In this document: one piece after another, positions 8,700 through 46,432 of the stretch | How the letters are laid out: each line of letters begins with the position of its first letter | Numbering within the stretch: the first letter of the stretch is position 1 | Source of the DNA: a bacterium | Lineage (GTDB): Bacteria; SZUA-182; DTGQ01; JBLIRR01 | Length of the DNA: 64,000 bases | NCBI GenBank assembly: GCA_049472395.1 | Contig: JBLIRR010000012.1 | Span: forward strand, 55,777 to 119,776 | Direction of reading: 5' to 3' | Notes under the pieces: generated by a model | The model's database searches: none | What the model was told of the DNA's origin: nothing | What the model saw: the letters and a program-made list of their open reading frames with translations, nothing else | Position numbers and translations under genes: made by a program

Positions 8700-9683
8700 C
8701 TATTTTCGATATTCTTTTAGGAGCGATGTTTGTAAAAAATTAAAGATTTGGGGGAGGGTCATATATCCTTTGGCTTTTAATTTTTTTAAATCAATAATGC
8801 CGCCAGCCATGGATGCGTGGCCTCCATATTCCCCGAAATCTTCTATGATGCGCCCTAATATATCAACGGAGTTGTGCTTTGAATATTCACTTCTTACAGA
8901 AATATACAGAAATTTTTTATCATGGGTAACTGTTACCATAAAATCAATATCCTGAATTTGAAAAAAAAAATCGCTGATAATCCCAAGAAGTGACGAAGAG
9001 GCATGAGGCCCCACATAGGTAAATCCAAATCCTCCCTTTGTGAATAGATTTGATATTCCTCGTTTGACGAATTCAATGTCCTTAAGCTCGAGATTATTAA
9101 TTAACACATGATTGATAAAGTTTATATCTGCGCGAGAATAGAGATAAGAGAATGCATTAAGATCTGGTTTTCTGACACCCCGAAGCATTTTCATTGTGTC
9201 AGTACTTAGTCCTATAAAGAGGGCTCCTGCAACTGATGCTGGAATGGTGAGCTTTGCTTCAATCAAATATTCTGTAATGATAGTACTGCATGAGCCATAG
9301 GTGGGCCGTATATCACAGAATTCAATCCCCGGGATTTTTTGTGCTCCCTCATGATGATCTATGACAGCGACTATTTTTGATTGAAGTTTTGGTATATTTT
9401 GTTTATCCGGTCTCCCATCTACTATGATAGTGCCATCATTCTCGGATAGACCGACCATTTTAACATGAACTATATCGATCTTTAAAAGATGTATCATTTT
9501 TTTTGTTATTTTTCTTTGGATCGTACCGCTATAACAAAATAGAGAGTTTATATTATTCTTCTTAAACAAATAGGAAAGGCCAAATCCCGCACCTATCGAA
9601 TCCGGATCGGGGAACTTGTGAGGGACTATAATAATACGCTTATATCGTCTACAAATATCTAAAAGTCTTGCTGAATGATCCAT
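8700..9683 (-). CDS. DHH/DHHA1 phosphoesterase (NrnA-like oligoribonuclease / pAp phosphatase)
   Basis: DHH motifs (FPDPDSIGAG, VIDHHEG) and DHHA1 motif GGHASMAGG. Confidence 0.8.
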   Translation of the reverse strand: MDHSARLLDICRRYKRIIIVPHKFPDPDSIGAGFGLSYLFKKNNINSLFCYSGTIQRKITKKMIHLLKIDIVHVKMVGLSENDGTIIVDGRPDKQNIPKLQSKIVAVIDHHEGAQKIPGIEFCDIRPTYGSCSTIITEYLIEAKLTIPASVAGALFIGLSTDTMKMLRGVRKPDLNAFSYLYSRADINFINHVLINNLELKDIEFVKRGISNLFTKGGFGFTYVGPHASSSLLGIISDFFFQIQDIDFMVTVTHDKKFLYISVRSEYSKHNSVDILGRIIEDFGEYGGHASMAGGIIDLKKLKAKGYMTLPQIFNFLQTSLLKEYRK

Positions 9684-9951
9684 ATCGATTTTATCTCTTA
9701 TCCGATTGCCTATCGGAGTTATTTATAGCATACGCAACTCTATTTTACAACCTTAAGGAAATAATACGTATGTGGCAAAAATTGATGAAATATATAAATT
9801 CCAGAGATCATTTTGAAATTGGCCGATGACTATGCATATGGTAAAAAGTAGCGCATGCTTATAAGAGAGAGAATATTCTAAACAATCAAATAATTAAGAC
9901 AATATAAAAAAGAGCAATAGAGAAGAATGAAAGGTGACGAAGGAGATATTT

Positions 9952-10737
9952 ATGAAAAGATGCCCGGTATCCGACAAAAAATATGATCAGGATATATTTA
10001 ACAATCTCGATGAAGTTGATATAAAGCATTTTGAGAATCAAGTGGCGCAATTTATGCGGCAGAAGCTTGATCTTATTCTTATAAAAAGCCATCGAGATAA
10101 TCAGAACAGATTAGAATATCCTGAGCTCATGCGATTGTTTTATATCGAAGCATCGGAGAAACCACTCTATCAAAATTTAAACAGGGCAGATGACGTTGAT
10201 GATTTGATTGCTCATATAATTGACCTTTCTATGAAATTGGGAAGATCTATCGGTGAAATAGTGTATAAATATAAAGAGAAAGTGGATAGAGAGGTATATG
10301 AACATATCCAAATGCTCTCCTCAATAGTGAAAGAATTTATTCAGCAGATGAAGCAAAAAAAAGGCGTGTATAGGATTTCAGAAAAAAGTACCGTGAAGGA
10401 TATGCAATATCAATTTTACGGATTTCTTAAAAAGAATTTTGATATATATCTGCTGGATAAGATTATTCCTCCTATTTTAGACGGAATTGAAGCTGGGCAT
10501 AGCGATGTGTATGAACTCATTCTCAAGTCTGTCAATGAGTTTTTATCTCACATGGGGATAATTACCTTAGAGTTGAGGGAGGATCAAGAAATTGATTATG
10601 AACTATGGACACCACTTGAATCAGATGATCATGACACCGGAGAGTATACACCTCAAAACCGTATAAAGAAAATCATTCAGTTGCCCTATGTTTTTGATAG
10701 AAATCATATGGTAAAACAGGGGAAAATTATTAGCTAA
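9952..10737 (+). CDS. Hypothetical protein with divergent GrpE-like C-terminal region
   Basis: ORF in the track begins at GTG 9934; ATG 9952 has a GAAGGAGAT RBS; C-terminal segment (LESDDHDTGEY...QGKII) loosely resembles the GrpE beta-domain. Confidence 0.45.
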   Translation: MKRCPVSDKKYDQDIFNNLDEVDIKHFENQVAQFMRQKLDLILIKSHRDNQNRLEYPELMRLFYIEASEKPLYQNLNRADDVDDLIAHIIDLSMKLGRSIGEIVYKYKEKVDREVYEHIQMLSSIVKEFIQQMKQKKGVYRISEKSTVKDMQYQFYGFLKKNFDIYLLDKIIPPILDGIEAGHSDVYELILKSVNEFLSHMGIITLELREDQEIDYELWTPLESDDHDTGEYTPQNRIKKIIQLPYVFDRNHMVKQGKIIS

Positions 10738-11969: not shown

Positions 11970-14054
11970 TTACCTTGTCCTTACTTTATATCCAACTTCG
12001 ATAATGCCACCAGCGCAGTCCCCTGGAATCTCAGCCTTGGAAAATCCTTTCTCCACTTCTTGAATATTTGCTTTACCGAGAAGATTACGTTCATCCTTAA
12101 AGATATTAAATTTCATGCCGGGGAAAATTCCTTTTTCCGTTCCCGTATCTGTATGGAACGTTTTTCCATTTTTTGCGATGATAGTCCCTGTACATAAAGG
12201 AAAAGAGTCCCGAAATTTCATTGAAAGACCGGAAATAATTAATGAAAGGTCATCGATGGTCTCAGAGGGGCTAAATACATCGTGATAGAGACGAATAAGA
12301 CCAGTATCAACTTCGATGAACCTTGCGAGTATCTCAATTCCATCCTCTCTTGTCGTGACGTATCCATATATTATTCCTTCTGCAGTTGTTATTTTGCCTA
12401 TCTGGTGCGCTTCAAGGCCCTGGATACTTTTCTCCATTATTATTTTGGGTAGTTTTTCCCGTTCGACCAAGGTAAAACGCCCCTGTTCTGAAAAAGATTC
12501 AATGGTCTTATTATAGATATAAGGAATAGTGGATTCATCATTCCTCATGCCATCACTCTCAAAAGGGAGTATAGCCAGTATCATCTTTTCTTCACTTTTA
12601 AAGATTTTTTCTCGCGGAACTTTCTGTATATAATGATGCGCTTCATCTTGATTTCCTAATCTATCTTCTACCAAAAGATTGAGCACTGTCATTTTTTCTT
12701 TAAGATGTATCATCTTATTAATATAATAAATATTATACCTTAACAAAATTGTGCGAACAAGTTCTATATATTTTTGAGGATTCTTGATTTCAGGAGTACG
12801 TGTTCGAAGTTTATCCATATTATTTTCCACAATCGTTTCTATTTCCGATATATGAAATAGTGTCCTATCATTGAGCTTTATCTGTTGTATTCCATTATTA
12901 GTCCGAATAATGCCCTCTAAAAAGATGTCGTGGTAATAGGTGGCAAAATCTTCTTTTGGTGGGTAGGTGATCTCAATGGAGATATCTCTTTTTGAGGGTA
13001 TCATCGCCAAAGTTGATGGCTCTCCATCATGAGAGGGCATATTCTGAGCAATTTTAACCCATTTTCCCGGTGGCGGCGTAAGAGGTATTTCCCCTTGAGT
13101 GATATTGCCGGCGTTATCTTTTGTCCAAAATGTAGCCGTCTTTAAGCCCTTAGTAAGAGGAATTGAGTGTTCAATAAGACACACCTGGTCAAGACCTATC
13201 GTGGGTACTTCTTTCTGATTCAGTGTAAAGGATTGAATACCGGACAGGTCATACACTATTGCGGTAAGAAGCACTTGATCTATTTTACCGCTTTTGTCAG
13301 GGTAGATTATATCTGCGATTACTATGGGTCCTTGTTGATCAAGGAAAATACGAATAGCCTTTTCTGCTTCTTTGCCGACTAGATCTTTGGTGGTGATGCT
13401 CACAGTATTCCAGCCCGCCTCAAGATCGACTGATACATGAAAGGGGAAGATAGGTTCGGCTAATTCAATAAACAGGGGATCGTGGTTTACTGAAACAGCA
13501 GCTATATAGTGATCATCATGTGCCATTCCGGTAACGCTGAAAGTAGTTTTATTCGTTCGGTATAGTTCTTTTTGCATTTCCAAATCGATCCCGGGAGGTT
13601 GTATATCCAATCCCGATGCAATGAGAGATGCCTTGCGAGTTTGATTAAGATAATATTTGGCCCTTGCCGAGCCACTGTGGCTCATAGATAATTCCAGTTC
13701 TTCTAATGCGTCCTCGATTAGTCCAAGATGGAAATAGCATATACCCAGTTCGCGATGAGGGAAATATCCTTCGCGGAAATGCATTCCATATGCCCTGGCA
13801 TATGGTTGATCTTGGTAACGAAGTTCAATAGCATCCTTGAATTCTGAAATCGCATATTCCCAACATCCTCCCCGCATACAGCTTATGCCCCGTCTATAGC
13901 ATGCATCCCAGGTTACCACATGAATCTTGTCTTGAGTAATACAATATTTCTTACCATCTTTGATACAGATTCTCGCCTTTTGCATAGAACATGCATAGAT
14001 AAGAATGATCATCCCTAGAAGCACAACATTTTTTATTTTGTCGTGTTTATACAT
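11970..14054 (-). CDS. TPR-containing lipoprotein with TolB-N-like and C-terminal beta module; partner of the cyclase-CHAT protein
   Basis: Lipobox-type signal peptide (IYACS); TPR-like helices near the N-terminus; LAILPFESDG segment and a C-terminal module resembling the C-terminus of the upstream gene product; 9-bp gap to the upstream gene. Confidence 0.7.
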   Translation of the reverse strand: MYKHDKIKNVVLLGMIILIYACSMQKARICIKDGKKYCITQDKIHVVTWDACYRRGISCMRGGCWEYAISEFKDAIELRYQDQPYARAYGMHFREGYFPHRELGICYFHLGLIEDALEELELSMSHSGSARAKYYLNQTRKASLIASGLDIQPPGIDLEMQKELYRTNKTTFSVTGMAHDDHYIAAVSVNHDPLFIELAEPIFPFHVSVDLEAGWNTVSITTKDLVGKEAEKAIRIFLDQQGPIVIADIIYPDKSGKIDQVLLTAIVYDLSGIQSFTLNQKEVPTIGLDQVCLIEHSIPLTKGLKTATFWTKDNAGNITQGEIPLTPPPGKWVKIAQNMPSHDGEPSTLAMIPSKRDISIEITYPPKEDFATYYHDIFLEGIIRTNNGIQQIKLNDRTLFHISEIETIVENNMDKLRTRTPEIKNPQKYIELVRTILLRYNIYYINKMIHLKEKMTVLNLLVEDRLGNQDEAHHYIQKVPREKIFKSEEKMILAILPFESDGMRNDESTIPYIYNKTIESFSEQGRFTLVEREKLPKIIMEKSIQGLEAHQIGKITTAEGIIYGYVTTREDGIEILARFIEVDTGLIRLYHDVFSPSETIDDLSLIISGLSMKFRDSFPLCTGTIIAKNGKTFHTDTGTEKGIFPGMKFNIFKDERNLLGKANIQEVEKGFSKAEIPGDCAGGIIEVGYKVRTR

Positions 14055-14063
14055 GAGGATTCC

Positions 14064-16877
14064 CTAGAGCTTTTTTTCAGTCCCTTTTATAGGATCTCCA
14101 GATTCAAATGGTACGTTTTGCTCAAGGATTTCTGCTACAGCCGTGCTTTCGTTTACCTTTTTTATGAGGATATACCCTTTTGTGGTTCTTTCTTCTGGTG
14201 TATCTAATTCCGGTGTATTTAAGACCGTGAAGACCTGATCCTGCCTCACTCCCATATTATGTCCAAGATTAATCTTGATCTCATCTCCTTCCAAAGACAT
14301 TATTCTACCTTTGAGAGGGTAATGGGTTGCGAGATTCTCGATGGTTTTACGGACCAATTCGGAGGCAATAGTTTCTAAGCTCTCTGTCTCAGGAAAGAAT
14401 GGTTGAGAGAATGCAGTGAGTATTTCAGTACTGTGTGTTTCTACAAGGCGAAGGCTTATTTCCGATTGTAATCCTTCACGTGTTTTATATGAGACGGGCT
14501 CAGGGAAAAGAATGATGCGGGCAGAGAGCAGTGTATAGGCATCCTGTAATGATTTTGATGAAAGTGTGGGAATCCCAATCTGAAGCTCCTGCAATATTCC
14601 TGCTATCCTTTTTCGCTCAAGTACGGACAAGCCAATTGAGGTGGTCTGAGTAAATACCTCAATCATCCTATTGAAAAGCTTTTCATAATGACCCTTCAAG
14701 GATACAACAGCAGGATCATCCAGTTCCTGCCAGTTCGGTGCAATGATACAAATGGAGATAGGCTGTGATGTCCATGTATCTGACTGGCTCTTGGTTGCGA
14801 AAAAACCTTTATTGTTAAATTGTTGGGTAAGCTGATCTTGATAGGAAGAAAGAATTTGAATAGTCTGTGTTATTTTTTGAAAATCAGGGTCTATTCCGGC
14901 TTCTTGAATGTAAGAGGGGAAAATGTTCGGAAGATTTCCATGAGGATCTTTATATGATTTTTTAAGACCCATATAGGCGTTTGTAATAAGAAGCATAATG
15001 ATAAGAGAGAGGCTTGCTCCCGTGAGCACTTGTTTCCATGACCAGGTTTTTTTATTGCTCTCTTTTATGTTTAAATCTCTATGAGCTGTCTCTGACCTCA
15101 CCATGCAATATTTTTTCTCATCCGGCTCTGGCTCCTTGATTTGTTCCATATAATTCGATGTGGGATCTCCGTACAGGACATAGCTTGCCCAGATAATCGC
15201 CTCTTCTTCATATTGATTAATTAATGAGAGCCTAGCTTTTCTTAAAGCTTCTCCTATGCTCATGCCAGAGAGAATGTTTTCATAGAATTCTAATGCAAAA
15301 TAACTTCCTTGGTTATCAGGAATTTCCCAGAATGTCCCAATGTAATGTTTTACTCCTGCTAAAAGAAACGCATTGGCCAATCCGAAGATTTCCTCCTGAA
15401 ATTGTTCTTTTAAGGTCCATTCATTAGTGCGTGCTGATTGACATGCATTCGAGAAAATAAGGGCGGGCATCTTTGAGGTGGCTATTGTGCTGATATCCCG
15501 TGCTGTGATGTTTTTACCTCCGGTTTTCCATCCACTCTCCTCGGGGCTTGTGTGATTAAACTCGGCATGACCTGCAAAATGGACAATATCAAATTGTTCA
15601 AATTTTTTTTTCAGATATTCACAGGTCAGGTTTTTTGAGCGTAAGGTAATATTTATGAAATTCTTTTCTCTCAGCATGAAGTCACGAATCCGAGAGCCTT
15701 CTGCATATGCATTCTTCAGATCCCCTTCCAGGTCTGCTATGATCAGCATATTTAATGGCTTTGACAATACCCGTGATTTACTTCCATTCACTGTCTGTTT
15801 GGTTTTTACTAATCTCCCCATATTGAAACGTTGACAAAGGAATTGATGGCCATCAAAAATAAGCTCCCAAGGGATCTGGACGAGTTGGTCATCGATATGT
15901 AAGGTTAAGTAATGCGCCCTTGTTTCGTCAAGCTTTTTCTTAAGGGAAGGGGAAAACAGTTTTTCATAAAAGGCCTGCCCAGTCTCTCTTAGTTTTAGGA
16001 GAAGCTCACGCTTGAAAATACCCAGGCGAAGCGCTTTATTAAAGGTATCGACCATCTCATTGCATTCTTTATTAATCCACTCCATGGAGATTGGGATCTG
16101 TTCATAATGACGAATAGTGCTTTCTTCTCCGGCCATGTGCTCATTAGAGCTAATTTTTAAATGATCCCTCTCACAAAGCACTTCGAGCCGAAAGACCATT
16201 ATGGATTTTTTCATTCTCTCTTCATCGGGTTCTTCACTAGCGCGCAGTTTCGGCTTTCCCCAGATGACCTGGAAAAGCTTTAAAGATTGAGCCCTACCTC
16301 TTGGAAGAGAGTATTTATCATACATACAGGTAATGTCCTCAGAGGATTTGACTTTTTCATAGACCTTCTTTGAGATAATTATCTGATAAGCCTTAGCGTG
16401 AGATTGGATACGTGATGCTTGACTTACCGCATTACCATAAATATCTGACTCCTTCATATAAACCTCATCCCAACTTATGCCGATCCTCACATGTATTTTA
16501 GAAATTTCTCCTATGATGGTGTTATAGGCATATAATCTTTTCTGAATTGCTATTGAGGCTTTTACTGCCGAGAGAGGATCTGGGAAATAGGCCATAAGCT
16601 CATCTCCCAGGGTTTTATATATCGTCCCCTTATTGCCTGCAATGATAGGCATGACGATCTGCCTGAGTTTTTGCACAAGACTTTTCCCGCACACATCACT
16701 GCGGGTATCAATAAAGTTTGGATAGTCATAAATGTTGGCAAAAAGAATAGCGAGTTTCTTCTTGTATTGTCCATTTAAAATTTCATCAATAAATTCTTTC
16801 CCCACTAATATTTCTTCAATCATGCCAGGGAATTTTCCAAAGAATACTTCATGATCTCTTGGCTTTAATTCCTCCAT
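14064..16877 (-). CDS. Membrane-anchored class III nucleotidyl cyclase domain / CHAT protease domain fusion protein
   Basis: N-terminal cyclase homology motifs (LAILFANIYD, YKTLGDELMAYF, RIGISWDEV, YGNAVSQASRIQS); CHAT motifs (QIPWELI, HFAGHA, FSNACQSA, AGVKHYIGTFWEIPD); one TM helix; ~300-aa C-terminal extracytoplasmic region. Confidence 0.8.
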   Translation of the reverse strand: MEELKPRDHEVFFGKFPGMIEEILVGKEFIDEILNGQYKKKLAILFANIYDYPNFIDTRSDVCGKSLVQKLRQIVMPIIAGNKGTIYKTLGDELMAYFPDPLSAVKASIAIQKRLYAYNTIIGEISKIHVRIGISWDEVYMKESDIYGNAVSQASRIQSHAKAYQIIISKKVYEKVKSSEDITCMYDKYSLPRGRAQSLKLFQVIWGKPKLRASEEPDEERMKKSIMVFRLEVLCERDHLKISSNEHMAGEESTIRHYEQIPISMEWINKECNEMVDTFNKALRLGIFKRELLLKLRETGQAFYEKLFSPSLKKKLDETRAHYLTLHIDDQLVQIPWELIFDGHQFLCQRFNMGRLVKTKQTVNGSKSRVLSKPLNMLIIADLEGDLKNAYAEGSRIRDFMLREKNFINITLRSKNLTCEYLKKKFEQFDIVHFAGHAEFNHTSPEESGWKTGGKNITARDISTIATSKMPALIFSNACQSARTNEWTLKEQFQEEIFGLANAFLLAGVKHYIGTFWEIPDNQGSYFALEFYENILSGMSIGEALRKARLSLINQYEEEAIIWASYVLYGDPTSNYMEQIKEPEPDEKKYCMVRSETAHRDLNIKESNKKTWSWKQVLTGASLSLIIMLLITNAYMGLKKSYKDPHGNLPNIFPSYIQEAGIDPDFQKITQTIQILSSYQDQLTQQFNNKGFFATKSQSDTWTSQPISICIIAPNWQELDDPAVVSLKGHYEKLFNRMIEVFTQTTSIGLSVLERKRIAGILQELQIGIPTLSSKSLQDAYTLLSARIILFPEPVSYKTREGLQSEISLRLVETHSTEILTAFSQPFFPETESLETIASELVRKTIENLATHYPLKGRIMSLEGDEIKINLGHNMGVRQDQVFTVLNTPELDTPEERTTKGYILIKKVNESTAVAEILEQNVPFESGDPIKGTEKKL

Positions 16878-16910: not shown

Positions 16911-17264
16911 TTAACACGTAAGATGAAGCGCGGCAACAGCCTTTTTGATTTTGTAAATAGTATTATAGTGTTCGACGGCGGCTGCTGTTTTAGCTATATA
17001 CACCCCGATTCCCTGGGCTTCAATTTCTCGCTGAACGTTAGGGGAAACTCTCATAAGTCCTGGTGTGCCTTTTCCAATAACCAAGATTTCCGGCTTATAC
17101 TCAATTATTTCTTGTATATCATCCATACAAAGATTGTGTCCTTCCTTGCGCCACCATGATGAATTAATCCTCTCCGGATAGATTATCACATCAGAGGTAT
17201 ACACCTTCCCGTTAATTTTTACGTGCCCAAAGCTATAAGAATCAATCATAAAGATATTACTCAC
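16911..17264 (-). CDS. Mth938-like domain protein
   Basis: Small protein with the Mth938-family pattern (HVKINGKVYTSDVIIYP...PEILVIGKGT...GIGVYIAKTAAAVEHYN). Confidence 0.65.
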   Translation of the reverse strand: MSNIFMIDSYSFGHVKINGKVYTSDVIIYPERINSSWWRKEGHNLCMDDIQEIIEYKPEILVIGKGTPGLMRVSPNVQREIEAQGIGVYIAKTAAAVEHYNTIYKIKKAVAALHLTC

Positions 17265-17551
17265 CCATTATAATATAGTATGACATTAAGAATACATTAT
17301 ATTATAAATATTGTCAATGATACTATATGCTTTTTCCATAAATTTTTATATCAATATCAACTTTTGCATTTATCTATAATCGAGATATTATGATGATATT
17401 ATTGAGCTTTGGTTTAAGCTCAAAACTAACAAGAAGTTAAAAATAAATTATATGTAAACATTGTAAATATGACTCTATAGATTTAGTATTTTCAAGTTGT
17501 TGTATAAAAAGTGCAGAAGTTGAGTAGCACTCTGAAAAACAGAATTACGAT

Positions 17552-17580
17552 TTGACAAAGAAAAGTTTTTCGTATACACT
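17552..17580 (+). promoter_or_regulatory. Candidate sigma-70 promoter for tRNA-Leu
   Basis: TTGACA (17552-17557), 17-nt spacer, TACACT (17575-17580), ending about 18 nt before the tRNA 5' end. Confidence 0.4.
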
Positions 17581-17597
17581 AATGTCCAATTTTGGTT

Positions 17598-17685
17598 GCC
17601 GGGGTGGCGGAACAGGCAGACGCAAGGGACTTAAAATCCCTCGGTATCTTATACCGTGGGGGTTCGATTCCCCCCTCCGGCACCA
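17598..17685 (+). tRNA. tRNA-Leu (anticodon UAA), CCA encoded
   Basis: Hand-folded cloverleaf: 7-bp acceptor stem with one G-U, anticodon loop CTTAAAA, long variable arm typical of Leu, T-loop TTCGATT, 3' ACCA; 88 nt. Confidence 0.85.
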
Positions 17686-17708
17686 TTAAATGCAATGATT
17701 TTTTTGGA

Positions 17709-17744
17709 GGATTGGTCTTAAGTGACCAATCCTTTTTTGTTTTC
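17709..17744 (+). terminator. Rho-independent terminator after tRNA-Leu
   Basis: Hairpin GGATTGGTC/GACCAATCC with 6-nt loop followed by TTTTTTGTTTT. Confidence 0.7.
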
Positions 17745-18007
17745 TGCAACTTATCTCTAAAAAAACCTCTTCTGTGATTATTTTCATCATCTAAAGAGAC
17801 AATCCATTTTTTTATTTAAATACGTGGTCTATTCCTACCAGATCGCCGAATAATAATAAAGAAGCTTTTTTTATATAAACGATTATTACTAATTAAAATA
17901 CTCCTTTATTGTAATATATTATTAAGAATGTTAAAATTGTAATAAAGACGCCTCATAATCATATTGATTCATAAGGTGTATTTAAGGTAAAAATAAAGGA
18001 GAGAATC

Positions 18008-18103
18008 ATGGCTGACGGAAAAAAACCCATAGACGGTATATGGGCATTAATCATATTCGGGTCTTTATTGGGAATGGTTTTTTTGCTGGGCTTTTTTGTG
18101 TAA
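18008..18103 (+). CDS. Small 31-aa single-TM peptide (not in the ORF track, below its length cutoff)
   Basis: ATG preceded by AAAGGAGAG at 7-nt spacing; translation MADGKKPIDGIWALIIFGSLLGMVFLLGFFV; sits between the tRNA-Leu terminator and the convergent U32 gene. Confidence 0.4.
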   Translation: MADGKKPIDGIWALIIFGSLLGMVFLLGFFV

Positions 18104-18113
18104 CCTAAGAATT

Positions 18114-35894: not shown

Positions 35895-35971
35895 GGTGGA
35901 TGTAGCTCAGTGGCTAGAGTCCTGGATTGTGGCTCCAGTTGTCGCGGGTTCAAATCCCGCCATCCACCCCA
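35895..35971 (+). tRNA. tRNA-His (anticodon GUG) with encoded G-1 and CCA
   Basis: Hand-folded cloverleaf: extra 5' G opposite discriminator C73, acceptor GTGGATG/CATCCAC, anticodon loop TTGTGGC, T-loop TTCAAAT. Confidence 0.85.
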
Positions 35972-37432: not shown

Positions 37433-40400
37433 GTGTTGCGCAATAATGAATATAGGGGAAAGATCAAATATCCTGCGAATTTGCCGATTGTTCATAAGAA
37501 GGATGAGATAATAAAGGCAATAAGGCGTCATCGGGTCGTAGTAATAAGTGGGGAGACCGGCTCAGGCAAAACAACTCAGATTCCAAAATTTTGTCTTGAG
37601 GCGGGCTTTGGCCGTAAAGGCATCATCGGGTGTACGCAGCCCCGGCGTATTGCCGCTTCATCTGTTGCACAGCGGGTAACAAGTGAATTAGATAGTTTGG
37701 GAAATGGACTTGTCGGTTACAAGATTCGTTTTAGGGATACGACACACTCTTCTACTGTTATCAAGTTTATGACAGATGGTATTCTTCTTGCCGAGACACA
37801 GTCAGATCCGATGCTACGGTCTTATGATATTATAATAATCGATGAGGCCCATGAAAGAAGCCTTAATATTGATTTCTTGCTTGGCATATTGCGGAATTTA
37901 ATTTGCCAAAGACAGCATCTTAAACTGATTGTTACCTCTGCAACCATTGATACTGAAAAATTTTCTCACTACTTTGATGATGCACCCATTGTTGAGATTT
38001 CAGGTAAGCTCTACCCTGTAGAGATCAGAAACAAACCACTGGATCATGCGCTGGAAGAGTCAGGGGAGATAACTTATATTGATCAGGCTGCAGCGGCAGT
38101 AGATGAATTAAGGGAGGAAGACTGCGAAGGGAATATGCTCATCTTTATGCCAAGTGAACGGGATATATGGGAAACAGTTCAGAAACTAAGGGGCAGAAAT
38201 TATCACCATACGATTATTCTTCCCCTTTTTGGAAGGCTTTCATCCGCAGATCAACAGAGGATATTTGCATCGACAAAAGAACAAAAGATTATAGTTTCTA
38301 CTAATATTGCTGAGACCTCTATTACAATCCCCGGAATTAAATACGTCATCGACACAGGATTAGCAAGAATTTCCCACTACAATCCGCGCCTTCGGATACA
38401 GACGCTTCCCATAAAAAACATATCCAAAAGCAGTGCAGATCAACGCAGGGGCAGATGCGGAAGGGTAAAGGCTGGTGTGTGTATTCGATTGTATAGTCAG
38501 GATGAATATGAGAGTTGGCCGCTTTTTACGCCACCAGAGATAATCAGGTCTAATCTTGCTGAAGTTATTTTGCGTATGCGGTATCTTAAAATAGAAGATA
38601 TCACACACTTCCCCTTTATTGATTCGCCAGCTCAAAAAGCAATAAAAGATGGGTTTGGAATTTTGCGAGAGCTTGGTGCTATTGATTCTTCAGACACATT
38701 GACGGATACTGGTATTCTTATGGCAAGACTGCCCCTTGATCCCAGAATTTCACGAATGATTATTGAGGCAAAAAAAGAAAATGCACTGCGTGAAATAATC
38801 ATTATTGCCTCTGCTTTGAGTATTCAAGATCCCAGGGAAAGGCCGGCAGAAAAACAGGGTCTTGCAGATGAAATGCATAGCCGTTTCATTGTCCCTCAAT
38901 CTGATTTCCTTACCCTTTTAAAGATATGGGATACCTATCATGATACCTTAGAGCGATTGAAAACGCAGAATCAAATGCGAAAGTTTTGCACTACTCATTT
39001 TCTTTCCTACAAACGAATGAGTGAGTGGCGGGATATTCATGAACATATCTATAGGATTCTCAAAGAAGAAGGCGGATATTCAATGAATAAAACCCCTGCT
39101 CATTATGATCAGATACATCGAGCCATATTAAGCGGACTTTTAAGTAATATAGGCCAGCGAAATATGAAAAAGGCAAAAGAGAAGAATGCCTATAATGCCA
39201 CTAAAGGCAAAGAGGTGATGATTTTTCCTGGTTCAGGCCAATTCGGAAAAGCAGGTGAGTGGATTGTGTCTGCCCAGATGGTGCAGACTTCACGACTTTT
39301 TGCTCGCACTATTGCCACGATTAATTCAGAATGGATCGAGGCTTTAGCCGATGGGCTCTGCAAGGTAACGTATTATGATCCTCATTGGGAAAAGGAGCGG
39401 GGGGAGGTTGTTGCATATCAGCAAAAATCTTTATATGGGCTCATTATCGTCCCAAAACGCAAAGTGAGTTATGGCGGAATTAATCCTGAAGAATCACAGA
39501 AAATTTTTATCAGAGCAGCCTTAATCGAAGGGCACATCAAGGAGTATTTTGTATTTTTTGACCATAATAACTCTATTATTACCTGCATAAAGAAAATGGA
39601 AGGCAAAATACGGCGCCGGGACCTTCTTGTGGATAATGACACCATGTATAATTTATATGCGCAGCGGCTTAAGGGCATATGTACTATCAATGGATTAAAA
39701 AAACTAATTAGAGAGAGAGGAGGGGATTCCTTTCTGAAAATGCATATGAATGATTTTCTCTCGACAATACCGGATGCCCAGGAGCTGGCTCAATACCCCG
39801 ATACATTGGAAGTGGGTGATCTGCTCCTTCCTCTTACTTACAGATTTAGCCCGGGTGATGAGGATGATGGGATAACAGTGACAATTCCCCTCTCTCAAAT
39901 GAATCACCTCCGGCCTGAGGTATTTGATTTCCTCGTGCCAGGCTTGTTATATGAAAAGATTATTTTTTTATTAAAAGGACTCCCCAAATTATATAGAAAA
40001 CAACTCATCCCTCTTCAAGATTCGGCAAAAATAATTGTTGATCTCATATCAGCCAAAAAGTCTCAGGGATCATTATATGCAATCCTGACTGCTATTATTT
40101 ATGATCAATACAGGGTAAAGATCCCTTTTGATGCGTGGCCGCGCACTACTCTTTTACCGCATCTTAATATAAGATATAAGGTAATAGACTTAGAAGGCAA
40201 GGTTATAGGGCAGGGCAGGGATTTTTACGCACTCTCGAAGATAAAGATTAAAGATGACGAGCAATGGGTGGGGGCATGTAAGAGGTGGAACCGCCCAGGT
40301 ATTGTAACCTGGGATTTTGATAATATAGAGGAGAAAATAGCTATTGGCCATGACAAGAACGGAATCTGTCATTATGCCTATCCCGGGCTCTATGCTCACA

Positions 40401-41215
40401 AAGAGTATAATGAAAAGGGTGCATCCGTGGAACTTCGATTATATAGATCCTCTGAAGAAGCGTACACAGCAACACAGAAAGGTTTAAAGACCCTTTATAT
40501 GATTCAATTTGCCATCCAGTTGAAAAGCTTTAAAAAAGACTGGGAATTCCCTGATAGCTGGAGAGAGCATTGTCGATCATTCGGGGATATACAAAAATTT
40601 AATGAAATGCTCTTTCATTTTATAGTGGATGAGATATTTCGAATAGATAATCCGAAAATACCAAGTAAAGAGGAATTTGAGGAAACAATTGAACATATAC
40701 GCAGTATATTTATCTCTAAGGCAAGGGAAATTATCAACCTTATACAAACTTTGTTAAAACAGCATCGCAGTACCCTTTATACGATAAAACATTTTGCCAC
40801 CCTGGCCTCGGCAAACCACGTTTTGGATCATCTGTTTACACAACTCACCAGTGATGTGAAGCAGCTTGCGCCCAGCCATTTTCTTACCCTCTATAATTTT
40901 GATCGTATGAAAGAGATTCCTCGATATTTAAAAGCTATCGAGGTCAGGGCCCAGCGCGCTTACGTATCCTTCCAAAAAGATAGTAAGAAAGCGCGCAGTT
41001 ATGCTGTTCACCAGAATAATCTTACGGCTGTCACGCAAGAATTGAAGCAGTCTAAGGTCTCATCGCCTCAGCGTATAAAACTCATTAATGAATACCGCTG
41101 GATGATAGAAGAATATAAGGTCTCACTGTTTGCCCCGGAGCTTAAGACTCCTTTTTCGATCTCGGATAAACGTCTTATGCAAAAATGGCAACAAATCCAG
41201 CACTGCTTCCCCTAG
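37433..41215 (+). CDS. hrpA: ATP-dependent RNA helicase HrpA (DEAH-box)
   Basis: Walker A GETGSGKTTQ, DEAH motif (IIIDEAHERS), helicase C and HrpA C-terminal region; about 1260 aa; GTG start. Confidence 0.9.
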   Translation: MLRNNEYRGKIKYPANLPIVHKKDEIIKAIRRHRVVVISGETGSGKTTQIPKFCLEAGFGRKGIIGCTQPRRIAASSVAQRVTSELDSLGNGLVGYKIRFRDTTHSSTVIKFMTDGILLAETQSDPMLRSYDIIIIDEAHERSLNIDFLLGILRNLICQRQHLKLIVTSATIDTEKFSHYFDDAPIVEISGKLYPVEIRNKPLDHALEESGEITYIDQAAAAVDELREEDCEGNMLIFMPSERDIWETVQKLRGRNYHHTIILPLFGRLSSADQQRIFASTKEQKIIVSTNIAETSITIPGIKYVIDTGLARISHYNPRLRIQTLPIKNISKSSADQRRGRCGRVKAGVCIRLYSQDEYESWPLFTPPEIIRSNLAEVILRMRYLKIEDITHFPFIDSPAQKAIKDGFGILRELGAIDSSDTLTDTGILMARLPLDPRISRMIIEAKKENALREIIIIASALSIQDPRERPAEKQGLADEMHSRFIVPQSDFLTLLKIWDTYHDTLERLKTQNQMRKFCTTHFLSYKRMSEWRDIHEHIYRILKEEGGYSMNKTPAHYDQIHRAILSGLLSNIGQRNMKKAKEKNAYNATKGKEVMIFPGSGQFGKAGEWIVSAQMVQTSRLFARTIATINSEWIEALADGLCKVTYYDPHWEKERGEVVAYQQKSLYGLIIVPKRKVSYGGINPEESQKIFIRAALIEGHIKEYFVFFDHNNSIITCIKKMEGKIRRRDLLVDNDTMYNLYAQRLKGICTINGLKKLIRERGGDSFLKMHMNDFLSTIPDAQELAQYPDTLEVGDLLLPLTYRFSPGDEDDGITVTIPLSQMNHLRPEVFDFLVPGLLYEKIIFLLKGLPKLYRKQLIPLQDSAKIIVDLISAKKSQGSLYAILTAIIYDQYRVKIPFDAWPRTTLLPHLNIRYKVIDLEGKVIGQGRDFYALSKIKIKDDEQWVGACKRWNRPGIVTWDFDNIEEKIAIGHDKNGICHYAYPGLYAHKEYNEKGASVELRLYRSSEEAYTATQKGLKTLYMIQFAIQLKSFKKDWEFPDSWREHCRSFGDIQKFNEMLFHFIVDEIFRIDNPKIPSKEEFEETIEHIRSIFISKAREIINLIQTLLKQHRSTLYTIKHFATLASANHVLDHLFTQLTSDVKQLAPSHFLTLYNFDRMKEIPRYLKAIEVRAQRAYVSFQKDSKKARSYAVHQNNLTAVTQELKQSKVSSPQRIKLINEYRWMIEEYKVSLFAPELKTPFSISDKRLMQKWQQIQHCFP

Positions 41216-41500: not shown

Positions 41501-44500
41501 ATGAAAAAGTTTAAAAGAGCATATTTTACAAGTTTTATAATTATCTCTTTATTATTGTGTGGATTAATATCCCGTGTAAATAATGTCCGAGCTGACGATA
41601 ATGTGTTTAATTATGATATTGGGGATTATCAGTGGGCACCCGGCTTCGGGTGGGGTGGATGGTCCACACGGGGGAGTTCTCCCAATGATGCGTGGGGCTC
41701 TTCAACGTTCTCTTCTTTTGATTTTTCACCAGGAAATAAGTTCGGGGGCTTTTTTACTAATATCTTAAGTGAACTTGTCTGTCCTTATGTGCCGGGTGTA
41801 ACGCTCGGCCCTTGGGTTACTTGCCCTCCGACTCCATCTCCCCCTCCTTGGCCCTCACCCGGCGAAGAGAATGAGGTATTTAGCAAAGAATATGAAATAT
41901 CGAAAGGTAAATATGGATACGGATGGGACTATTGTTGGGGTGGAAATTGTGGCACAACAGTTGATTCTTCAATGAGTGCAACAGATACTTTTTCTGTTCC
42001 CGAAAAAGGTATTTATTATGTAAGGATTTACAATGGCGGAGAAGCAAGTTATAAAGGTGACCGTGTATCCTCCGGTGAGATAAAAATCAATAATAAGAAG
42101 GTAATAAAAAGTAATGATTTTAACAAGAACGAGACATTCATTGAAGTTCAATTAGAGTTAAAAAAGGGGATAAATACGCTCTATGTAAAGATAAATGGAG
42201 CCCCGGGTGCTTTTATAGTGGTGAAGATAGTCAAGATAGTGGAACCTGTGCCTCCCCCTGTCATTGAATTCGAGGACGCAAAACTTGAGGCTGCGGTTCG
42301 CGCTGCTCTTGGAATTGGAAAGAATGAGCCTCTCACAGAGGACCTTCTTCTTGGTCTCACTGATTTATATGTGGATTCACTGGGTATTAAAAAACTTGGA
42401 GGGATAGAGTATTGCACAAATCTTGAATTTCTTAGCGCCTCGGATAATAAAATAAGTGACGTGGGTCCTCTCGCATTCCTTCATAATCTCATATGGCTCC
42501 ATCTTGCGCGAAACAATATCTCCAATGTAAGCGCATTGGAATATCTTACTGAGCTTGAGTGGCTCAATGTATCCAATAATACAATAACCAGCTTATTTCC
42601 CCTTATAGATTGTGATAATCTAGAGTGGCTCAATCTTTCCAATAATCCTATCAATCCTTATGATTTAAGTGATTTATCTCATATAGATCATTTATATTTT
42701 ACTAATGATCCGGCTGTCTATGATAGAACCACAGGAATGATGGCGACTGATTCGCGTGATGATAATTTTACGTTTACCTTTGAAGATCTCCTTGCGCATC
42801 CGGCAGATAGCGCTACCTTGACGCTCACTATCGAAGGAGATGTCGATGAATCGCGAGAGTATTTGAGTGTGTATTCGGGAAATCGCGATTTGGGTGATAT
42901 TTTTAAGAGCGGAAATCTAAAAGAATGTGATGGATTTAATGAGGCACAGATAGAAATTACTCCAGATGATCTGGAGTCCTTAATGCATAAGGGGAAAATT
43001 ACCTTTACTTTAATACCATCGAATTATGTTGATTTCAGTGAGTGTCATCTAAGAGCTTATCTGCGATTGGAATATGAAAGACAAGCGGTTGTTAAGCAGT
43101 ATGTTTTTGGTGATGAAACCGGAACCGCAACCTCCGATGGTGATCCTCTATCCTTTACCTATAAAGATATTCCTTTAGATCCACTCCATAATGTCAATTT
43201 AATTGTCAATGTCAATGGCGATGTGGGAAATCCCAGTGAGTATATTACGGTTAAGGCAGGCACTACGAAACTCGGAGATGTATATAAAACTGGGGGTCTT
43301 TTAGACTGCAGTGGATTTTATGAAGAAGTCATTCAAATAACCAAGGAACAGGTACAATCATTAACCACCGATGGAAAGATTACCTTTACCCTCGTGCCAT
43401 CGAGCGCTGTCGGGTATAGTGCGTGCAATCTGAGCGCTTATCTGAAACTTGAGTATGTATCGTATGTTTTTGGCCAGGAAACTGATACTATACTATCGGA
43501 CGGAGGACTATCCTTTACGTATAGAGATATTCCGGAAGACCCGGTTCGTGGCTGTATTTTAGAATTGAATGTTGAGGGTGATTTGGATAGTAGCAATGAA
43601 TATATCACTGTGAAAGCAGGAAGTACAATAATCGGACAGGTATATAAAGACGGAGATCCTAAGGAATGTAATGGTTTTAATGAAGAGCAGCTTGAAATAA
43701 GCGCAAGTAAGTTACAATCATTAACCAGTGGCGGAGAGATTACCTTTACATTAGTGCCATCGAGCGCTGTCGGATTTGGCACCTGTGATCTAAGTGTATA
43801 TGCAAGATTGGCATATGAAAGTGAGCCGCCCGTTACTCCCTTTCTGTTTGGTAAGCAAACTCCTACGGTAAATTCTGATGAGGGAGGAGTGTCCTTTACC
43901 TATAGTGGAATTCCTGTAGATCCTCTTCATGCGGTGAATCTTATTGTCAAAGCAAAGGGAGATTTGGGAGGTACCAATGAATATATTACTGTGAAAGCAG
44001 GCACGATCGTGCTTGGGAATTTATATAATACTCAAGGCCAGACAGACTGCGGTGAGCTCAAAGAAGAACAGATAACCATAAGCAAGGATGAATTGAAGTC
44101 CCTCACCACTTATGGTAAGATTACTTTTACATTGGTTCCCTCCAGTGCGGTGAGCTATGGTTCATGTGATCTGAGTGTAAATGTTAAGCTTGACTATGTA
44201 TCCTATGCTTTTGGGGAAGCAAGTGCTACGGTGTCATCTGATGGTGCATTATTTTTTACATTCAGAGAAATTCCGGCCAATCCTCAGCATCCTGTCAAAG
44301 TGGTTGTCAAAGCAAAGGGGGATTTGGGTGCCACGAATGAATACCTCACGATAAAAGCGGGTAGTACTGAACTTGGAAATTTATATACAACCTCCGACCA
44401 GACAGACTGTGGTGATTTTAAAGAAGTATCCATAACCTTGAGTAAGGATAAGGTGAAGTCCCTTGCGATTGATAATAAGATAACTTTTACATTGGTTCCA

Positions 44501-46432
44501 TCGAGCGCTGTCGGTTATGGTTCTTGTGATTTAAGTGCCAATTTAACACTCGTATATGAAAGTGAGCCACCCGTTCCTACCTATATTATTGGCGAAACAA
44601 CAGCGACAGTAAATTCCGATGGTGATGTAATATCTTTTACTTACGAGGAAATTCCTTCAAATCCGCTCCGTAATCTTACTATCATTGTCAAAGCAAAGGG
44701 GGATTTGGGCGACACGAATGAGTATATCACCTTAAAAGCAGGCGCCACTATACTTGCGGATTTGTATAGAGCACCTGATCTAGTAGATTGTGGCGAATTT
44801 GAAGAAGAGAAGATAATCATAAGTAAGAGTATGGTGCAATCCTTAACAGTGAATGGGCAGATTACCTTTTCATTAGTGCCATCTGGTGCGGTGAGTTATG
44901 GCACATGTGATCTAAGTGCGAATCTCACACTGGTATATGTAGGTGAACCCTCTATAGTGCCCGGTGTGTTTGGCAAGAAAACAGCCACGGCGACATCCGA
45001 CCAAGAACTCTCCTTTGCCTATAATGATGTTCCTGCGAATCCGCTTGAGAATTGTATCTTATCTGTTTTTTTCAAAGGGGATGTAGATCATTCCAGTGAA
45101 TTTATCACTGTCAAAGCGGGAAGTACTGTGCTCGGGTATTTATATAAAACAGGGAACCCAACGAGCTGTGATGTGTTTAATGAGGGGCAAATATTCATAA
45201 GTAAAAGTGCATTAAAGAACATGACAACCAACGGGGAAATAACCTTTACCTTAATCCCCTCTGCAGAGGTTAATATTTGCGATTCAAGCGCCTATATAAA
45301 ACTTGCATATGAAAGCCAACCCCCCGATACTACCTCTGTGTTTGGCAAGAAGACAGCAACGGTGACATCCGATGGTGTAATATCTTTTACCTATAGAGAG
45401 GTTCCTGCCCATCCACTCGATAATTGTATTTTATCCGTTTATTTCAAAGGGGATATAGATCAACCCAGTGAATATATCACTGTCACAGCAGGGGGGACTG
45501 AGCTTGAGGATTTGTATGCAACGGGAAATCCAACGAGTTGTGATGTGTTTAATGAAGGGCAAATATTCATAAGCAAAAGTGCATTAAAGAACATGACAAC
45601 CGACGGGGAAATAACCTTTACCTTAATTCCCTCTGAAGAAGTTAATTATTGTGATTCAAGCGCCTATATAAAACTTACATATGAAAATTACCTTCCTCCT
45701 GATTCATGTGTATTTGGACAAAAAACCCCCATCATGATCTTTGAGAATGAACTCTCCTTTATTTATAAGGGAATTCCTTCATCCCCGCATGATGACGTTA
45801 TCTTAATTCTTAATGCAGATGGGGATTTAGGCAGTACCAATGAGTTTATTACCGTGAAAGCAGGTGATACCGTGCTTGGCGATATATATAGAACCGCAGG
45901 TCTGACAGATTGCAGTGGACTCAAAGAGGATATTATAACAATTGGGAAGGATGAACTGGCTTCGCTCACAACAAATGGTGAAATAACATTTACATTAATT
46001 CCTTCCGGCGCGGTGAGTTATGTCTCGTGTGATCTGAGGATTTCTGCAGAACTCACATATGTATCCTATATATTTGGTGAGCAGACACCGACGGAGACCT
46101 CGGAGGGTTCAATATCTTTTAACTACAGAGGGATTCCTTCAGATTTGCTTGATGATGTCATTTTAATTGTCAACGCAGATGGAGATTTGGGTAAAAGCTA
46201 TGAGTTTATTACCGTGAAAGTAGGGAGTATAGAGCTTGGAGATTTATATAATACGGAGACTCTCACAGACTGCAGTGGATTTCATGAAGGATTTATAAAT
46301 ATTACCAAGGATGAATTGAAATCTTTAGCCACCGAAGATGGGAAGATTACATTTACATTAGTCCCATCGATTGCTGTTGATTTCAGTTCTTGTCCCCTAA
46401 GGGCCAATGTAATCCTCGACTATCAATCATAG
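41501..46432 (+). CDS. Giant secreted repeat protein: signal peptide, LRR region, about ten tandem ~120-aa Cys-containing repeats
   Basis: Signal peptide; Gly/Trp-rich N-terminal region; leucine-rich repeats (LxxLxLxxNxIS pattern); tandem units each with ITFTLVPS, EYITVKAG and two conserved Cys; GGGGGGAG RBS. Confidence 0.85.
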   Translation: MKKFKRAYFTSFIIISLLLCGLISRVNNVRADDNVFNYDIGDYQWAPGFGWGGWSTRGSSPNDAWGSSTFSSFDFSPGNKFGGFFTNILSELVCPYVPGVTLGPWVTCPPTPSPPPWPSPGEENEVFSKEYEISKGKYGYGWDYCWGGNCGTTVDSSMSATDTFSVPEKGIYYVRIYNGGEASYKGDRVSSGEIKINNKKVIKSNDFNKNETFIEVQLELKKGINTLYVKINGAPGAFIVVKIVKIVEPVPPPVIEFEDAKLEAAVRAALGIGKNEPLTEDLLLGLTDLYVDSLGIKKLGGIEYCTNLEFLSASDNKISDVGPLAFLHNLIWLHLARNNISNVSALEYLTELEWLNVSNNTITSLFPLIDCDNLEWLNLSNNPINPYDLSDLSHIDHLYFTNDPAVYDRTTGMMATDSRDDNFTFTFEDLLAHPADSATLTLTIEGDVDESREYLSVYSGNRDLGDIFKSGNLKECDGFNEAQIEITPDDLESLMHKGKITFTLIPSNYVDFSECHLRAYLRLEYERQAVVKQYVFGDETGTATSDGDPLSFTYKDIPLDPLHNVNLIVNVNGDVGNPSEYITVKAGTTKLGDVYKTGGLLDCSGFYEEVIQITKEQVQSLTTDGKITFTLVPSSAVGYSACNLSAYLKLEYVSYVFGQETDTILSDGGLSFTYRDIPEDPVRGCILELNVEGDLDSSNEYITVKAGSTIIGQVYKDGDPKECNGFNEEQLEISASKLQSLTSGGEITFTLVPSSAVGFGTCDLSVYARLAYESEPPVTPFLFGKQTPTVNSDEGGVSFTYSGIPVDPLHAVNLIVKAKGDLGGTNEYITVKAGTIVLGNLYNTQGQTDCGELKEEQITISKDELKSLTTYGKITFTLVPSSAVSYGSCDLSVNVKLDYVSYAFGEASATVSSDGALFFTFREIPANPQHPVKVVVKAKGDLGATNEYLTIKAGSTELGNLYTTSDQTDCGDFKEVSITLSKDKVKSLAIDNKITFTLVPSSAVGYGSCDLSANLTLVYESEPPVPTYIIGETTATVNSDGDVISFTYEEIPSNPLRNLTIIVKAKGDLGDTNEYITLKAGATILADLYRAPDLVDCGEFEEEKIIISKSMVQSLTVNGQITFSLVPSGAVSYGTCDLSANLTLVYVGEPSIVPGVFGKKTATATSDQELSFAYNDVPANPLENCILSVFFKGDVDHSSEFITVKAGSTVLGYLYKTGNPTSCDVFNEGQIFISKSALKNMTTNGEITFTLIPSAEVNICDSSAYIKLAYESQPPDTTSVFGKKTATVTSDGVISFTYREVPAHPLDNCILSVYFKGDIDQPSEYITVTAGGTELEDLYATGNPTSCDVFNEGQIFISKSALKNMTTDGEITFTLIPSEEVNYCDSSAYIKLTYENYLPPDSCVFGQKTPIMIFENELSFIYKGIPSSPHDDVILILNADGDLGSTNEFITVKAGDTVLGDIYRTAGLTDCSGLKEDIITIGKDELASLTTNGEITFTLIPSGAVSYVSCDLRISAELTYVSYIFGEQTPTETSEGSISFNYRGIPSDLLDDVILIVNADGDLGKSYEFITVKVGSIELGDLYNTETLTDCSGFHEGFINITKDELKSLATEDGKITFTLVPSIAVDFSSCPLRANVILDYQS
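42760..46432 (+). repeat. Tandem array of about ten diverged ~360-bp coding repeats
   Basis: Recurring protein motifs imply a ~360-bp DNA period; two adjacent units are ~95% identical over ~120 nt (near 45150 and 45510). Confidence 0.75.

Follow-up and report, generated by a model that had tools for sequence, protein, structure and literature searches.

A single-pass CHAT protein and the lipoprotein encoded beside it share a predicted FlgT-like periplasmic module and form a plausible signalling pair

How might a caspase-like protease inside the cell be connected to events in the periplasm, and does the lipoprotein encoded next to it take part? A pair of adjacent genes raises this question in the stretch of DNA analysed here (the window: 64,000 nucleotides of contig JBLIRR010000012.1, positions 55,777 to 119,776). 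Gene A encodes a membrane protein with a cyclase-homology domain and a CHAT protease domain, and gene B encodes a predicted lipoprotein with a TPR-like region. The original prediction held that B starts 9 bp past A on the same strand and that the C-termini of the two proteins are alike; the coordinates and the junction were verified in the sequence, and we found the two C-termini to be the same homologous module. We consider it reasonably probable that A and B are a cognate two-protein signalling unit across the envelope, in which B would sense a cue, the modules would touch in the periplasm and the cytoplasmic CHAT protease of A would be controlled. The genes lie head to tail:

14064-16877, minus strand: gene A, a 937-aa single-pass membrane protein with a cyclase-homology domain, CHAT protease, transmembrane (TM) helix and periplasmic module (open reading frame, ORF; Pfam)
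11970-14054, minus strand: gene B, a 694-aa lipoprotein with signal peptide and lipobox, TPR-like domain, three beta-sandwich domains and periplasmic module (ORF; AlphaFold2 (AF2) model, predicted local distance difference test (pLDDT) 84)
14055-14063, minus strand: A-B junction, 9 nt, TAG-GGAATCCTC-ATG, in the same reading frame (sequence)

The Shine-Dalgarno sequence of B is weak (GGGA) and overlaps the stop codon of A, and no terminator-like site or hairpin was found between the two genes. B is 100% identical to a protein from a metagenome-assembled genome (MAG) at NCBI (P0121, locus tag ACMUJM_09915). The exact A protein was not returned by a search of 5.8 billion proteins, in which the best match had 51% identity; A may carry another annotation in the source record, or be marked there as a pseudogene, although its ORF is intact in the window.

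One homologous module on both C-termini

14067-14768, minus strand: periplasmic module of A, residues 704-937, an alpha/beta domain (about 707-852) and a six-stranded beta-barrel (about 856-932)
11973-12590, minus strand: periplasmic module of B, residues 489-694, homologous to the A module

The likeness that had been predicted over the C-terminal ~200 residues was weak in pairwise comparison. BLASTP aligned A734-917 and B513-676 collinearly over 187 aa, ending on STAVAEI and GFSKAEI, with 21% identity and E=0.092, and because this alignment alone was not significant, the claim of homology rests on profiles and their controls. Alignment of A-clade and B-family C-terminal profiles with hhalign gave 99.2% probability and E=1.7e-19 over 178 columns, whereas the reversed and column-permuted B profiles gave E=0.57 and E=0.64. 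Smith-Waterman alignment of the C-termini reached z=5.5, with the real score matched in 0/1000 shuffles, and transitive BLAST links ran from the A C-terminus to B-family members (E down to 4e-9) and from the B C-terminus to A-family members (2e-9). The AF2 models (pLDDT 82 for A residues 691-937) have an identical order of elements in both modules, beta-alpha-beta-alpha-alpha-beta-beta-beta-alpha followed by six strands, and the DSSP states were equal at 148 of 178 aligned positions (83%) versus a circular-shift mean of 32% and maximum of 51%. The motifs ICIIAP and LAILPF fall outside the hhalign alignment, yet form the equivalent first beta-strand in both models, and the segment originally described as Gly-rich and beta-like is the six-stranded beta-barrel. 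When the ORFs of the window were annotated with profile hidden Markov models (HMMs), A and B were its only two carriers of the module.

The models show a TolB-N/CsgG/LpoB-like alpha/beta domain followed by a six-stranded barrel, in an arrangement like that of the middle and C-terminal domains of FlgT, which was the sole solved structure matching both halves. Structural matches of the module (scores in brackets) were TolB (10.3), HpaA (9.5), CsgG (9.5), PelC (8.5), TraT (8.2), LptE (8.1) and LpoB (7.6), and those of full-length B were CT253 (13.0), FlgT (12.6, 178 residues), CsgG (12.3), TolB (12.2), PelC (11.7) and LpoB (10.9); the B N-terminus matched TPR proteins. The alpha/beta half is structurally similar to the CsgG/TolB-N/LpoB fold, and the arrangement of FlgT middle domain and FlgT_C barrel was found as well. 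In sequence profiles, the Pfam FlgT_C model scored 15 bits in A against a cut-off of 27, and CsgG (PF03783), run on the isolated C-termini, matched equivalent positions at 12.5 bits in A and 20.6 bits in B, both below the cut-off of 20.8; full-length B also had a sub-threshold CsgG match at residues 521-569. Relatives exceeded the CsgG gathering score (P0012, 26.5 bits; P0138, 35.8 bits) and also passed that of LpoB. A profile search of PDB sequences found CsgG at E=0.004, and matched the tail to KOW/uL24-like barrels and FlgT at E=0.05-0.4.

The family to which the module belongs is large: there were 18,736 cluster representatives with E<=1e-3, of which 316 reached E<=1e-30, and the module was C-terminal in nearly all of the best 150 members, whose lengths ran from about 140 to 1,200 aa. 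The hits of a homology search with the module profile were mostly short pieces of C-termini on small contigs and told little about domain architectures; a Pfam census of 65 long members counted CsgG in 53, TPR in about 49, CHAT in 33, FlgT_C in 12, cyclase in 11 and AhpC/TSA in 10. Compared with FlgT of the Vibrio flagellar H-ring (PDB 3w1e, 8z5n), the proteins here lack the FlgT N-terminal domain and the flagellar context and stay below the Pfam thresholds, and the module is a C-terminal appendage of signalling proteins and of a lipoprotein with TPR and Ig-like domains. Compared with CsgG/HfaB, LpoB and TolB-N (PF03783, PF13036), it lacks the membrane hairpin, has an extra beta-barrel, and stands in no curli or PBP context. 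A CsgG-type channel was considered and rejected, because the ~23-residue membrane-hairpin segment of CsgG (4uv2) is a gap in the module and the AF2 domain is compact alpha/beta.

The lists of structural matches are dominated by periplasmic lipoproteins that form rings or bind partners (CsgG, PelC, TraT, LptE, LpoB, TolB-N), which speaks for the signalling unit proposed here. Alternatively, the pair might belong to a structural or secretion apparatus, in which a CsgG/PelC/FlgT-like ring under the outer membrane exports or anchors a polymer or giant surface protein and CHAT processes the cargo or a regulator. Ring formers are among the best matches (FlgT as part of the LPHT ring, CsgG as a nonamer, PelC as a dodecamer, TraT as a decamer), the annotation 'CsgG/HfaB family' is given to some relatives, genes for giant secreted proteins and FadL-like channels lie near the cassette in relatives, and a GT2 glycosyltransferase gene adjoins B in the window. 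We nonetheless regard such an apparatus as quite improbable, since the transmembrane-hairpin segment of CsgG is absent, A and B fall below the CsgG gathering score, curli, Pel and flagellar genes were not found nearby, and the partner proteins described below carry kinase or cyclase signalling domains, and sigma and anti-sigma genes are often embedded in the loci.

Domains and topology of A and B

16326-16766, minus strand: class III cyclase-homology domain of A, residues 38-184 (Pfam PF00211 Guanylate_cyc, 38.4 bits)
15165-15986, minus strand: CHAT caspase-like protease domain of A, residues 298-571 (Pfam PF12770, E=3.6e-38)
14961-15029, minus strand: TM helix of A, about residues 617-639 (Kyte-Doolittle 19-residue maximum 1.79 at residue 617)

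The CHAT domain of A scored 132.1 bits against a PF12770 gathering cut-off of 24, and its dyad is intact: His437 (HFAGH) and Cys479 (SNACQS) are both conserved in 81/81 aligned sequences. The cyclase domain, at 38.4 bits, exceeded the PF00211 gathering cut-off of 21.9, and relatives scored 76-81 bits. In A the first metal-binding Asp is replaced by Asn48 (the preceding GD reads GN) and the transition-state Asn by Ser152, with Asp92 and Arg156 kept, so that the complete catalytic set of class III cyclases is not present; among the aligned relatives the Asp column held D in 79/81 and the Asn column N in 79/81. A homodimeric class III cyclase that lacks a metal-binding Asp does not catalyse. Because this residue is lost, the cyclase domain of A is probably catalytically dead, a pseudo-cyclase retained for dimerisation or regulation.

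The state of this domain also bears on whether the locus could be an anti-phage or conflict system, in which a nucleotide signal would come from the cyclase (as in Pycsar or CBASS) and CHAT would serve as the effector, killing or arresting infected cells. PADLOC gave matches of A to the PycC cyclase (1.6e-6) and BovA (1e-6), and CHAT proteases have roles in type III CRISPR and CBASS-linked systems. These matches are weak and single-domain, however, with none for B or the neighbours; the window cyclase lacks catalytic residues and the cyclase is missing in many partners; and the neighbours are housekeeping and signalling genes, with no defence island. The conserved element is periplasmic, which fits envelope sensing, and we judge a role in defence very improbable.

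No N-terminal signal peptide was found in A, and the hydropathy scan gave a single TM-like segment, the equivalent of which is found in P0001, P0005 and P0012. Because the CHAT domain is N-terminal to this only TM helix, it should be cytoplasmic together with the cyclase domain (which is of an ATP-dependent type), so that the N-terminal 615 residues would lie in the cytoplasm and the final ~300 in the periplasm. B is predicted to be exported as a lipoprotein:

13989-14054, minus strand: signal peptide (residues 1-21) and lipobox IYAC with Cys22, Ser at +2 (sequence)
13614-13910, minus strand: TPR-like helical domain, residues 49-147 (AF2 model; TPR_2 Pfam match at residues 50-79)
13743-13766, minus strand: YFPHRELG motif, residues 97-104, inside the TPR-like domain
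12621-13592, minus strand: three beta-sandwich (Ig-like) domains, residues 155-238, 244-324 and 358-478, the third with a helical insert (AF2 secondary structure)

By its hydrophobic N-terminus (MYKHDKIKNVVLLGMIILIYAC, maximum hydropathy 1.71), signal peptide and lipobox, B is predicted to be a lipidated lipoprotein. A lipobox-type Cys occurs in most full-length members of the B family, a few having plain signal peptides, and none of the members with a lipobox motif has Asp at +2. The best-conserved feature of the family is YFPHRELG, in which Y97, F98, R101, E102 and G104 are invariant among 51 sequences; the motif was specific enough to retrieve the 279 genomic stretches described below, and it is a candidate ligand- or partner-binding site. 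Also invariant in the family are four residues of the sandwich domains, D224, D269, D313 and N317, which may bind metal. The Ig-like Pfam matches in B (Glucodextran_B and Big_13, residues 164-239) were sub-threshold, with those in relatives above threshold, and residues 331-354 form a disordered linker in the AF2 model.

It had also been proposed that the TPR region of B fits a use of TPR scaffolds by CHAT proteases, and the topology contradicts this. Separase, Csx29 and DdvA carry TPR and CHAT on one chain and in one compartment (PMC11506125, PMC10028731). Such a fused TPR superhelix is not what A has: Pfam found no TPR match in A, and the TPR resides in the exported lipoprotein B or, in fused relatives, C-terminal to the TM helix. 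As the membrane separates TPR from CHAT, the TPR cannot scaffold the protease.

Pairing across genomes and the proposed signalling route

We scanned the B alignment over 185,579 species-representative genomes and obtained 279 stretches, mostly from Desulfobacterota or Nitrospirota MAGs or from MAGs of unassigned phylum; 80 loci were retrieved, and their stop-to-stop ORFs were annotated with HMMs for cyclase, CHAT, B core and module. A module-bearing partner flanked the B-like gene in 60/64 informative loci, lying directly upstream on the same strand in 39, downstream in 17 and nearby in 4; the contig was too short to tell in a further 16 loci, and 4 loci lacked a partner although each flank was 3 kb or longer. 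Since these first loci had been retrieved via B, we also ran an A-centred check, and a B-like gene was present in 6/6 loci (those of four CHAT proteins on long contigs and of P0005 and P0006). In the closest relatives of A, a B homologue comes next in the gene order: P0128 after P0005, and a 952-aa B homologue after P0006. Co-occurrence of the two genes, an expectation of the original prediction, thus held from both directions.

The partners were of several types: cyclase, CHAT and module; CHAT and module; cyclase, TPR and module (L066, L084); Ser/Thr kinase (Pkinase), TM segment, TPR and module (L079); and Peptidase_C14 and module (L037). Because their N-terminal parts vary, the module is what stays constant in the partner. 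Of the 120 relatives of A that were listed, about 100 are ~1050 aa long with the layout cyclase-CHAT-TM-TPR-module, so that TPR and module commonly occur together in one chain on the periplasmic side; in the window's clade the TPR is found only on the lipoprotein. The L037 partner (8993-10705) has an N-terminal signal peptide, a Peptidase_C14 caspase and the module; its caspase-like domain would be periplasmic, a topology unlike that of the CHAT proteins.

The adjacency could in principle be a coincidence between unrelated proteins that happen to share a very common periplasmic domain. The size of the module family and the non-significant pairwise BLASTP are in keeping with that, but the module occurs on A and B alone in 64 kb, the pairing recurs in 60/64 and 6/6 loci from many phyla, and the trees of the two partners are concordant, as set out next; we give coincidence a negligible chance.

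Among 55 complete pairs, the partner and lipoprotein modules co-diverged with a Mantel r of 0.898 (permutation mean 0.001, maximum 0.24), and their nearest neighbours were concordant in 34/55 cases (permutation mean 1.07, maximum 5). Several MAGs carry two or three pairs that are mutually 24-33% identical, and each pair groups with orthologues of other genomes; MG1_202111_bin_529, for instance, has three pairs. Together with adjacency, this co-divergence would be the pattern expected of specific cognate partners, and a physical association of A and B is plausible. Recent duplication or gene conversion of the module was also considered and rejected: cognate A and B modules were 22.4% identical versus 21.3% for non-cognate ones (window pair 16%, joint alignment), with identities of 33% and 37% within the partner and lipoprotein lineages. 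Because cognate and non-cognate identities are about equal, the modules represent two ancient paralogous lineages inherited as a unit, and not a recent copy.

A different account of the same data would have A and B linked and co-expressed without their modules binding each other; both would attach independently to the same third partner, for example peptidoglycan, an outer-membrane protein or a large secreted repeat protein, and so be brought to one envelope site. By itself this leaves unexplained why the membrane protein, with any of its cytoplasmic domains, is accompanied by a lipoprotein bearing its module, and why one genome can hold orthogonal pairs with concordant trees; in the window's clade, moreover, no third component is conserved. 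We consider it unlikely.

Sigma and anti-sigma genes near the relatives suggest what the protease might act on. Where 1.6 kb or more of sequence upstream of the CHAT partner was available, a zf-HC2 anti-sigma ORF abutted the CHAT gene in 26/42 loci, usually with an extracytoplasmic function (ECF) sigma gene; the ECF-type sigma (Sigma70_r2/r4) and zf-HC2 identities were confirmed by Pfam. Two gene orders were seen, either sigma, anti-sigma, CHAT, B or B, sigma, anti-sigma, cyclase-CHAT. Examples of ECF sigma with anti-sigma, beside about 30 further loci, are:

L016, 1405-3013
L050, 2501-3898
L086, 5188-7014

The CHAT proteins of two of these sigma-linked loci are encoded at 3088-5313 in L016 and at 3885-7088 in L050. 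A TM-like segment was found in 0/34 anti-sigma ORFs (maximum hydropathy 1.48, versus 1.79 in A and 1.71 in B). The anti-sigma factors are therefore soluble, and the membrane-spanning element of the cassette would be the CHAT protein.

We propose that the TPR and Ig-like domains of B pick up a cue from the envelope or from outside the cell, that the FlgT-like modules of A and B bind each other (hetero-oligomerise) in the periplasm, and that B would thereby set the conformation or oligomeric state of A and hence of its cytoplasmic protease, with the degenerate cyclase domain kept as a dimerising or regulatory scaffold. Module contact and signal flow are what we infer from the homology, pairing, co-divergence and topology described above. 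For most CHAT-type relatives, the probable substrate of the protease is the soluble zf-HC2 anti-sigma factor whose gene lies directly upstream, and its cleavage would free the ECF sigma factor; we suggest this because the gene context matches the Csx29-Csx30-CASP-sigma logic. The general logic of lipoprotein-assisted envelope sensing is known from RcsF-IgaA, NlpE-CpxA and LpoB-PBP1B, in which, as proposed here, an exported lipoprotein modulates an inner-membrane protein by periplasmic contact. Those systems differ in having unrelated domains, no homologous module on both partners and no CHAT output.

Several observations weigh against this proposal. The window and its closest relatives have no sigma or anti-sigma genes nearby (the ORFs of 120 aa or longer in the 64-kb window included no pair of this kind, and L001-L010 had none either) and no conserved upstream gene. 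The degeneracy of the cyclase is peculiar to the window copy, so that the role of the domain there is guesswork. Four loci with good flanks hold a B-like gene without a detectable partner, and linkage or shared operon inheritance alone also yields co-divergence and adjacency. The same fold binds unrelated partners elsewhere (LpoB with PBP1B, TolB-N with TolA), and the modules could bind a third component such as peptidoglycan.

The closest parallels are two CHAT systems that control sigma factors. In craspase (Csx29 TPR-CHAT, Csx30 and CASP-sigma; type III-E CRISPR), the Csx29 protease cleaves Csx30, a soluble inhibitor of the ECF-like CASP-sigma (PMC10028731); A relatives likewise have a cytoplasmic CHAT beside an ECF-type sigma and a soluble inhibitor. 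Csx29 differs in having a fused TPR and in being activated by RNA-bound Cas7-11, whereas A, a membrane-anchored protein with periplasmic module and lipoprotein partner, has neither a CRISPR context nor a TPR fused to it in the cytoplasm, and its locus in the window has no sigma/anti-sigma pair. In DdvA-DdvS of Myxococcus xanthus, DdvA is a periplasmic TPR-CHAT fused to an anti-sigma factor (PMC11506125). It resembles A in being a single-pass membrane CHAT protein, and further likenesses are ECF sigma control, envelope-side sensing and dimers, but DdvA is inverted: its CHAT and TPR are periplasmic with the anti-sigma domain fused on the cytoplasmic side, whereas the CHAT of A is cytoplasmic, the anti-sigma factor, where present, is separate and soluble, and a periplasmic FlgT-like module and lipoprotein partner are added.

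The domains and the general logic, including protease-controlled anti-sigma factors, are already known, and the CHAT-lipoprotein cassette is apparently undescribed so far. In a literature search covering full texts and few subscription journals, we found no description of CHAT with CsgG, TPR and caspase, or of CHAT with adenylate cyclase, TPR and lipoprotein. DdvA and craspase were the only links between CHAT and ECF sigma factors found in the literature, and CHAT is not mentioned in the ECF reclassification paper. Bacterial CHAT and caspase-like proteases are abundant, and their triggers and substrates are mostly obscure outside the CRISPR-linked craspases, DdvA and HetF. The family described here wires such a protease to the periplasm by a defined module and a dedicated lipoprotein, and because a soluble anti-sigma and ECF sigma adjoin CHAT in most CHAT-type relatives, it offers a concrete substrate and signalling path. 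If true, extracytoplasmic cues would have a new path to ECF sigma factors, the two proteins would be a natural case in which homologous modules let cognate partners recognise each other, and the activation of a caspase-like protease across a membrane could be studied in a tractable system; the window copy, with its dead cyclase and no sigma pair, would show rewiring of the cassette.

A more far-reaching version can be offered as a tentative and rather doubtful extension. The paired FlgT-like modules might form a specific hetero-oligomeric periplasmic bridge or ring that joins a lipoprotein sensor to an inner-membrane caspase-like protease, defining a widespread class of trans-envelope proteolytic signalling in which an ECF sigma factor is set free when a membrane-anchored cytoplasmic CHAT cuts a soluble anti-sigma factor. 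Such a mechanism would stand next to regulated intramembrane proteolysis and partner switching as a third route, and sigma-less variants like that of the window would use the protease on another target, possibly in growth arrest or cell fate decisions.

Genes around the pair in relatives and in the window

In the window's clade a shorter B paralogue, with B core and module and about 540-550 aa long where complete, is the third gene after B. It is missing in the window, where the GT2 glycosyltransferase gene on the opposite strand follows B instead. It was found at:

L001, 15039-16664
L003, 14575-16239
L006, 3883-5097
L007, 6440-7765
L010, 13031-14713
L013, 3470-5242

Giant secreted repeat proteins (1055 to >2296 aa; LVIVD, NHL, NosD/BNR, CHB_HEX_C/Fn3_assoc/Dockerin) follow the cassette in several relatives, and FadL/Toluene_X-like channels lie near it in L086 and L087. 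These proteins and channels could be regulon members or ligands; comparable neighbours are absent beside the window pair. The giant proteins are encoded at:

L001, 16703-18916
L003, 16419-19297
L086, 10353-17153
L087, 10266-13871
L088, 10419-13586

The remaining features of the window are as follows:

16911-17264, minus strand: DUF498/Mth938-like ORF, ending 33 nt before A (Pfam DUF498, E=3e-25)
17289-17317, minus strand: promoter-like site TTGACA-17-TATTCT, upstream of the DUF498 ORF (consensus scan; the number of such sites was not above shuffled expectation)
17598-17682, plus strand: tRNA gene, 85 nt (Rfam, 54.9 bits)
17706-17735, plus strand: strong terminator-like hairpin with a 12-bp stem, after the tRNA gene
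35896-35968, plus strand: second tRNA
8700-9683, minus strand: DHH/DHHA1 phosphoesterase, 327 aa, NrnA-like by eye, beyond the GT2 gene downstream of B
9934-10737, plus strand: 267-aa protein with no Pfam or PADLOC match, just beyond the GT2 gene
37433-41215: HrpA-like helicase (DUF3418), adjoining the 1643-aa ORF
41501-46432, plus strand: 1643-aa ORF with a short leucine-rich-repeat match (residues 306-362) and otherwise no Pfam match

The DUF498 ORF is possibly co-transcribed with A, and the promoter-like site is a candidate start of a DUF498-A-B transcript. This ORF is absent upstream of A in L001, L003, L010 and L011, and no conserved gene was found upstream of A in the window's clade. A link between the DHH/DHHA1 phosphoesterase and cyclase-family nucleotide signalling is conceivable. 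A small RNA was considered for the 850-bp ORF-free gap (17265-18113), which separates the DUF498 ORF from the peptidase U32 gene, and was rejected, since the gap holds the tRNA gene and the terminator-like hairpin, which together explain it.

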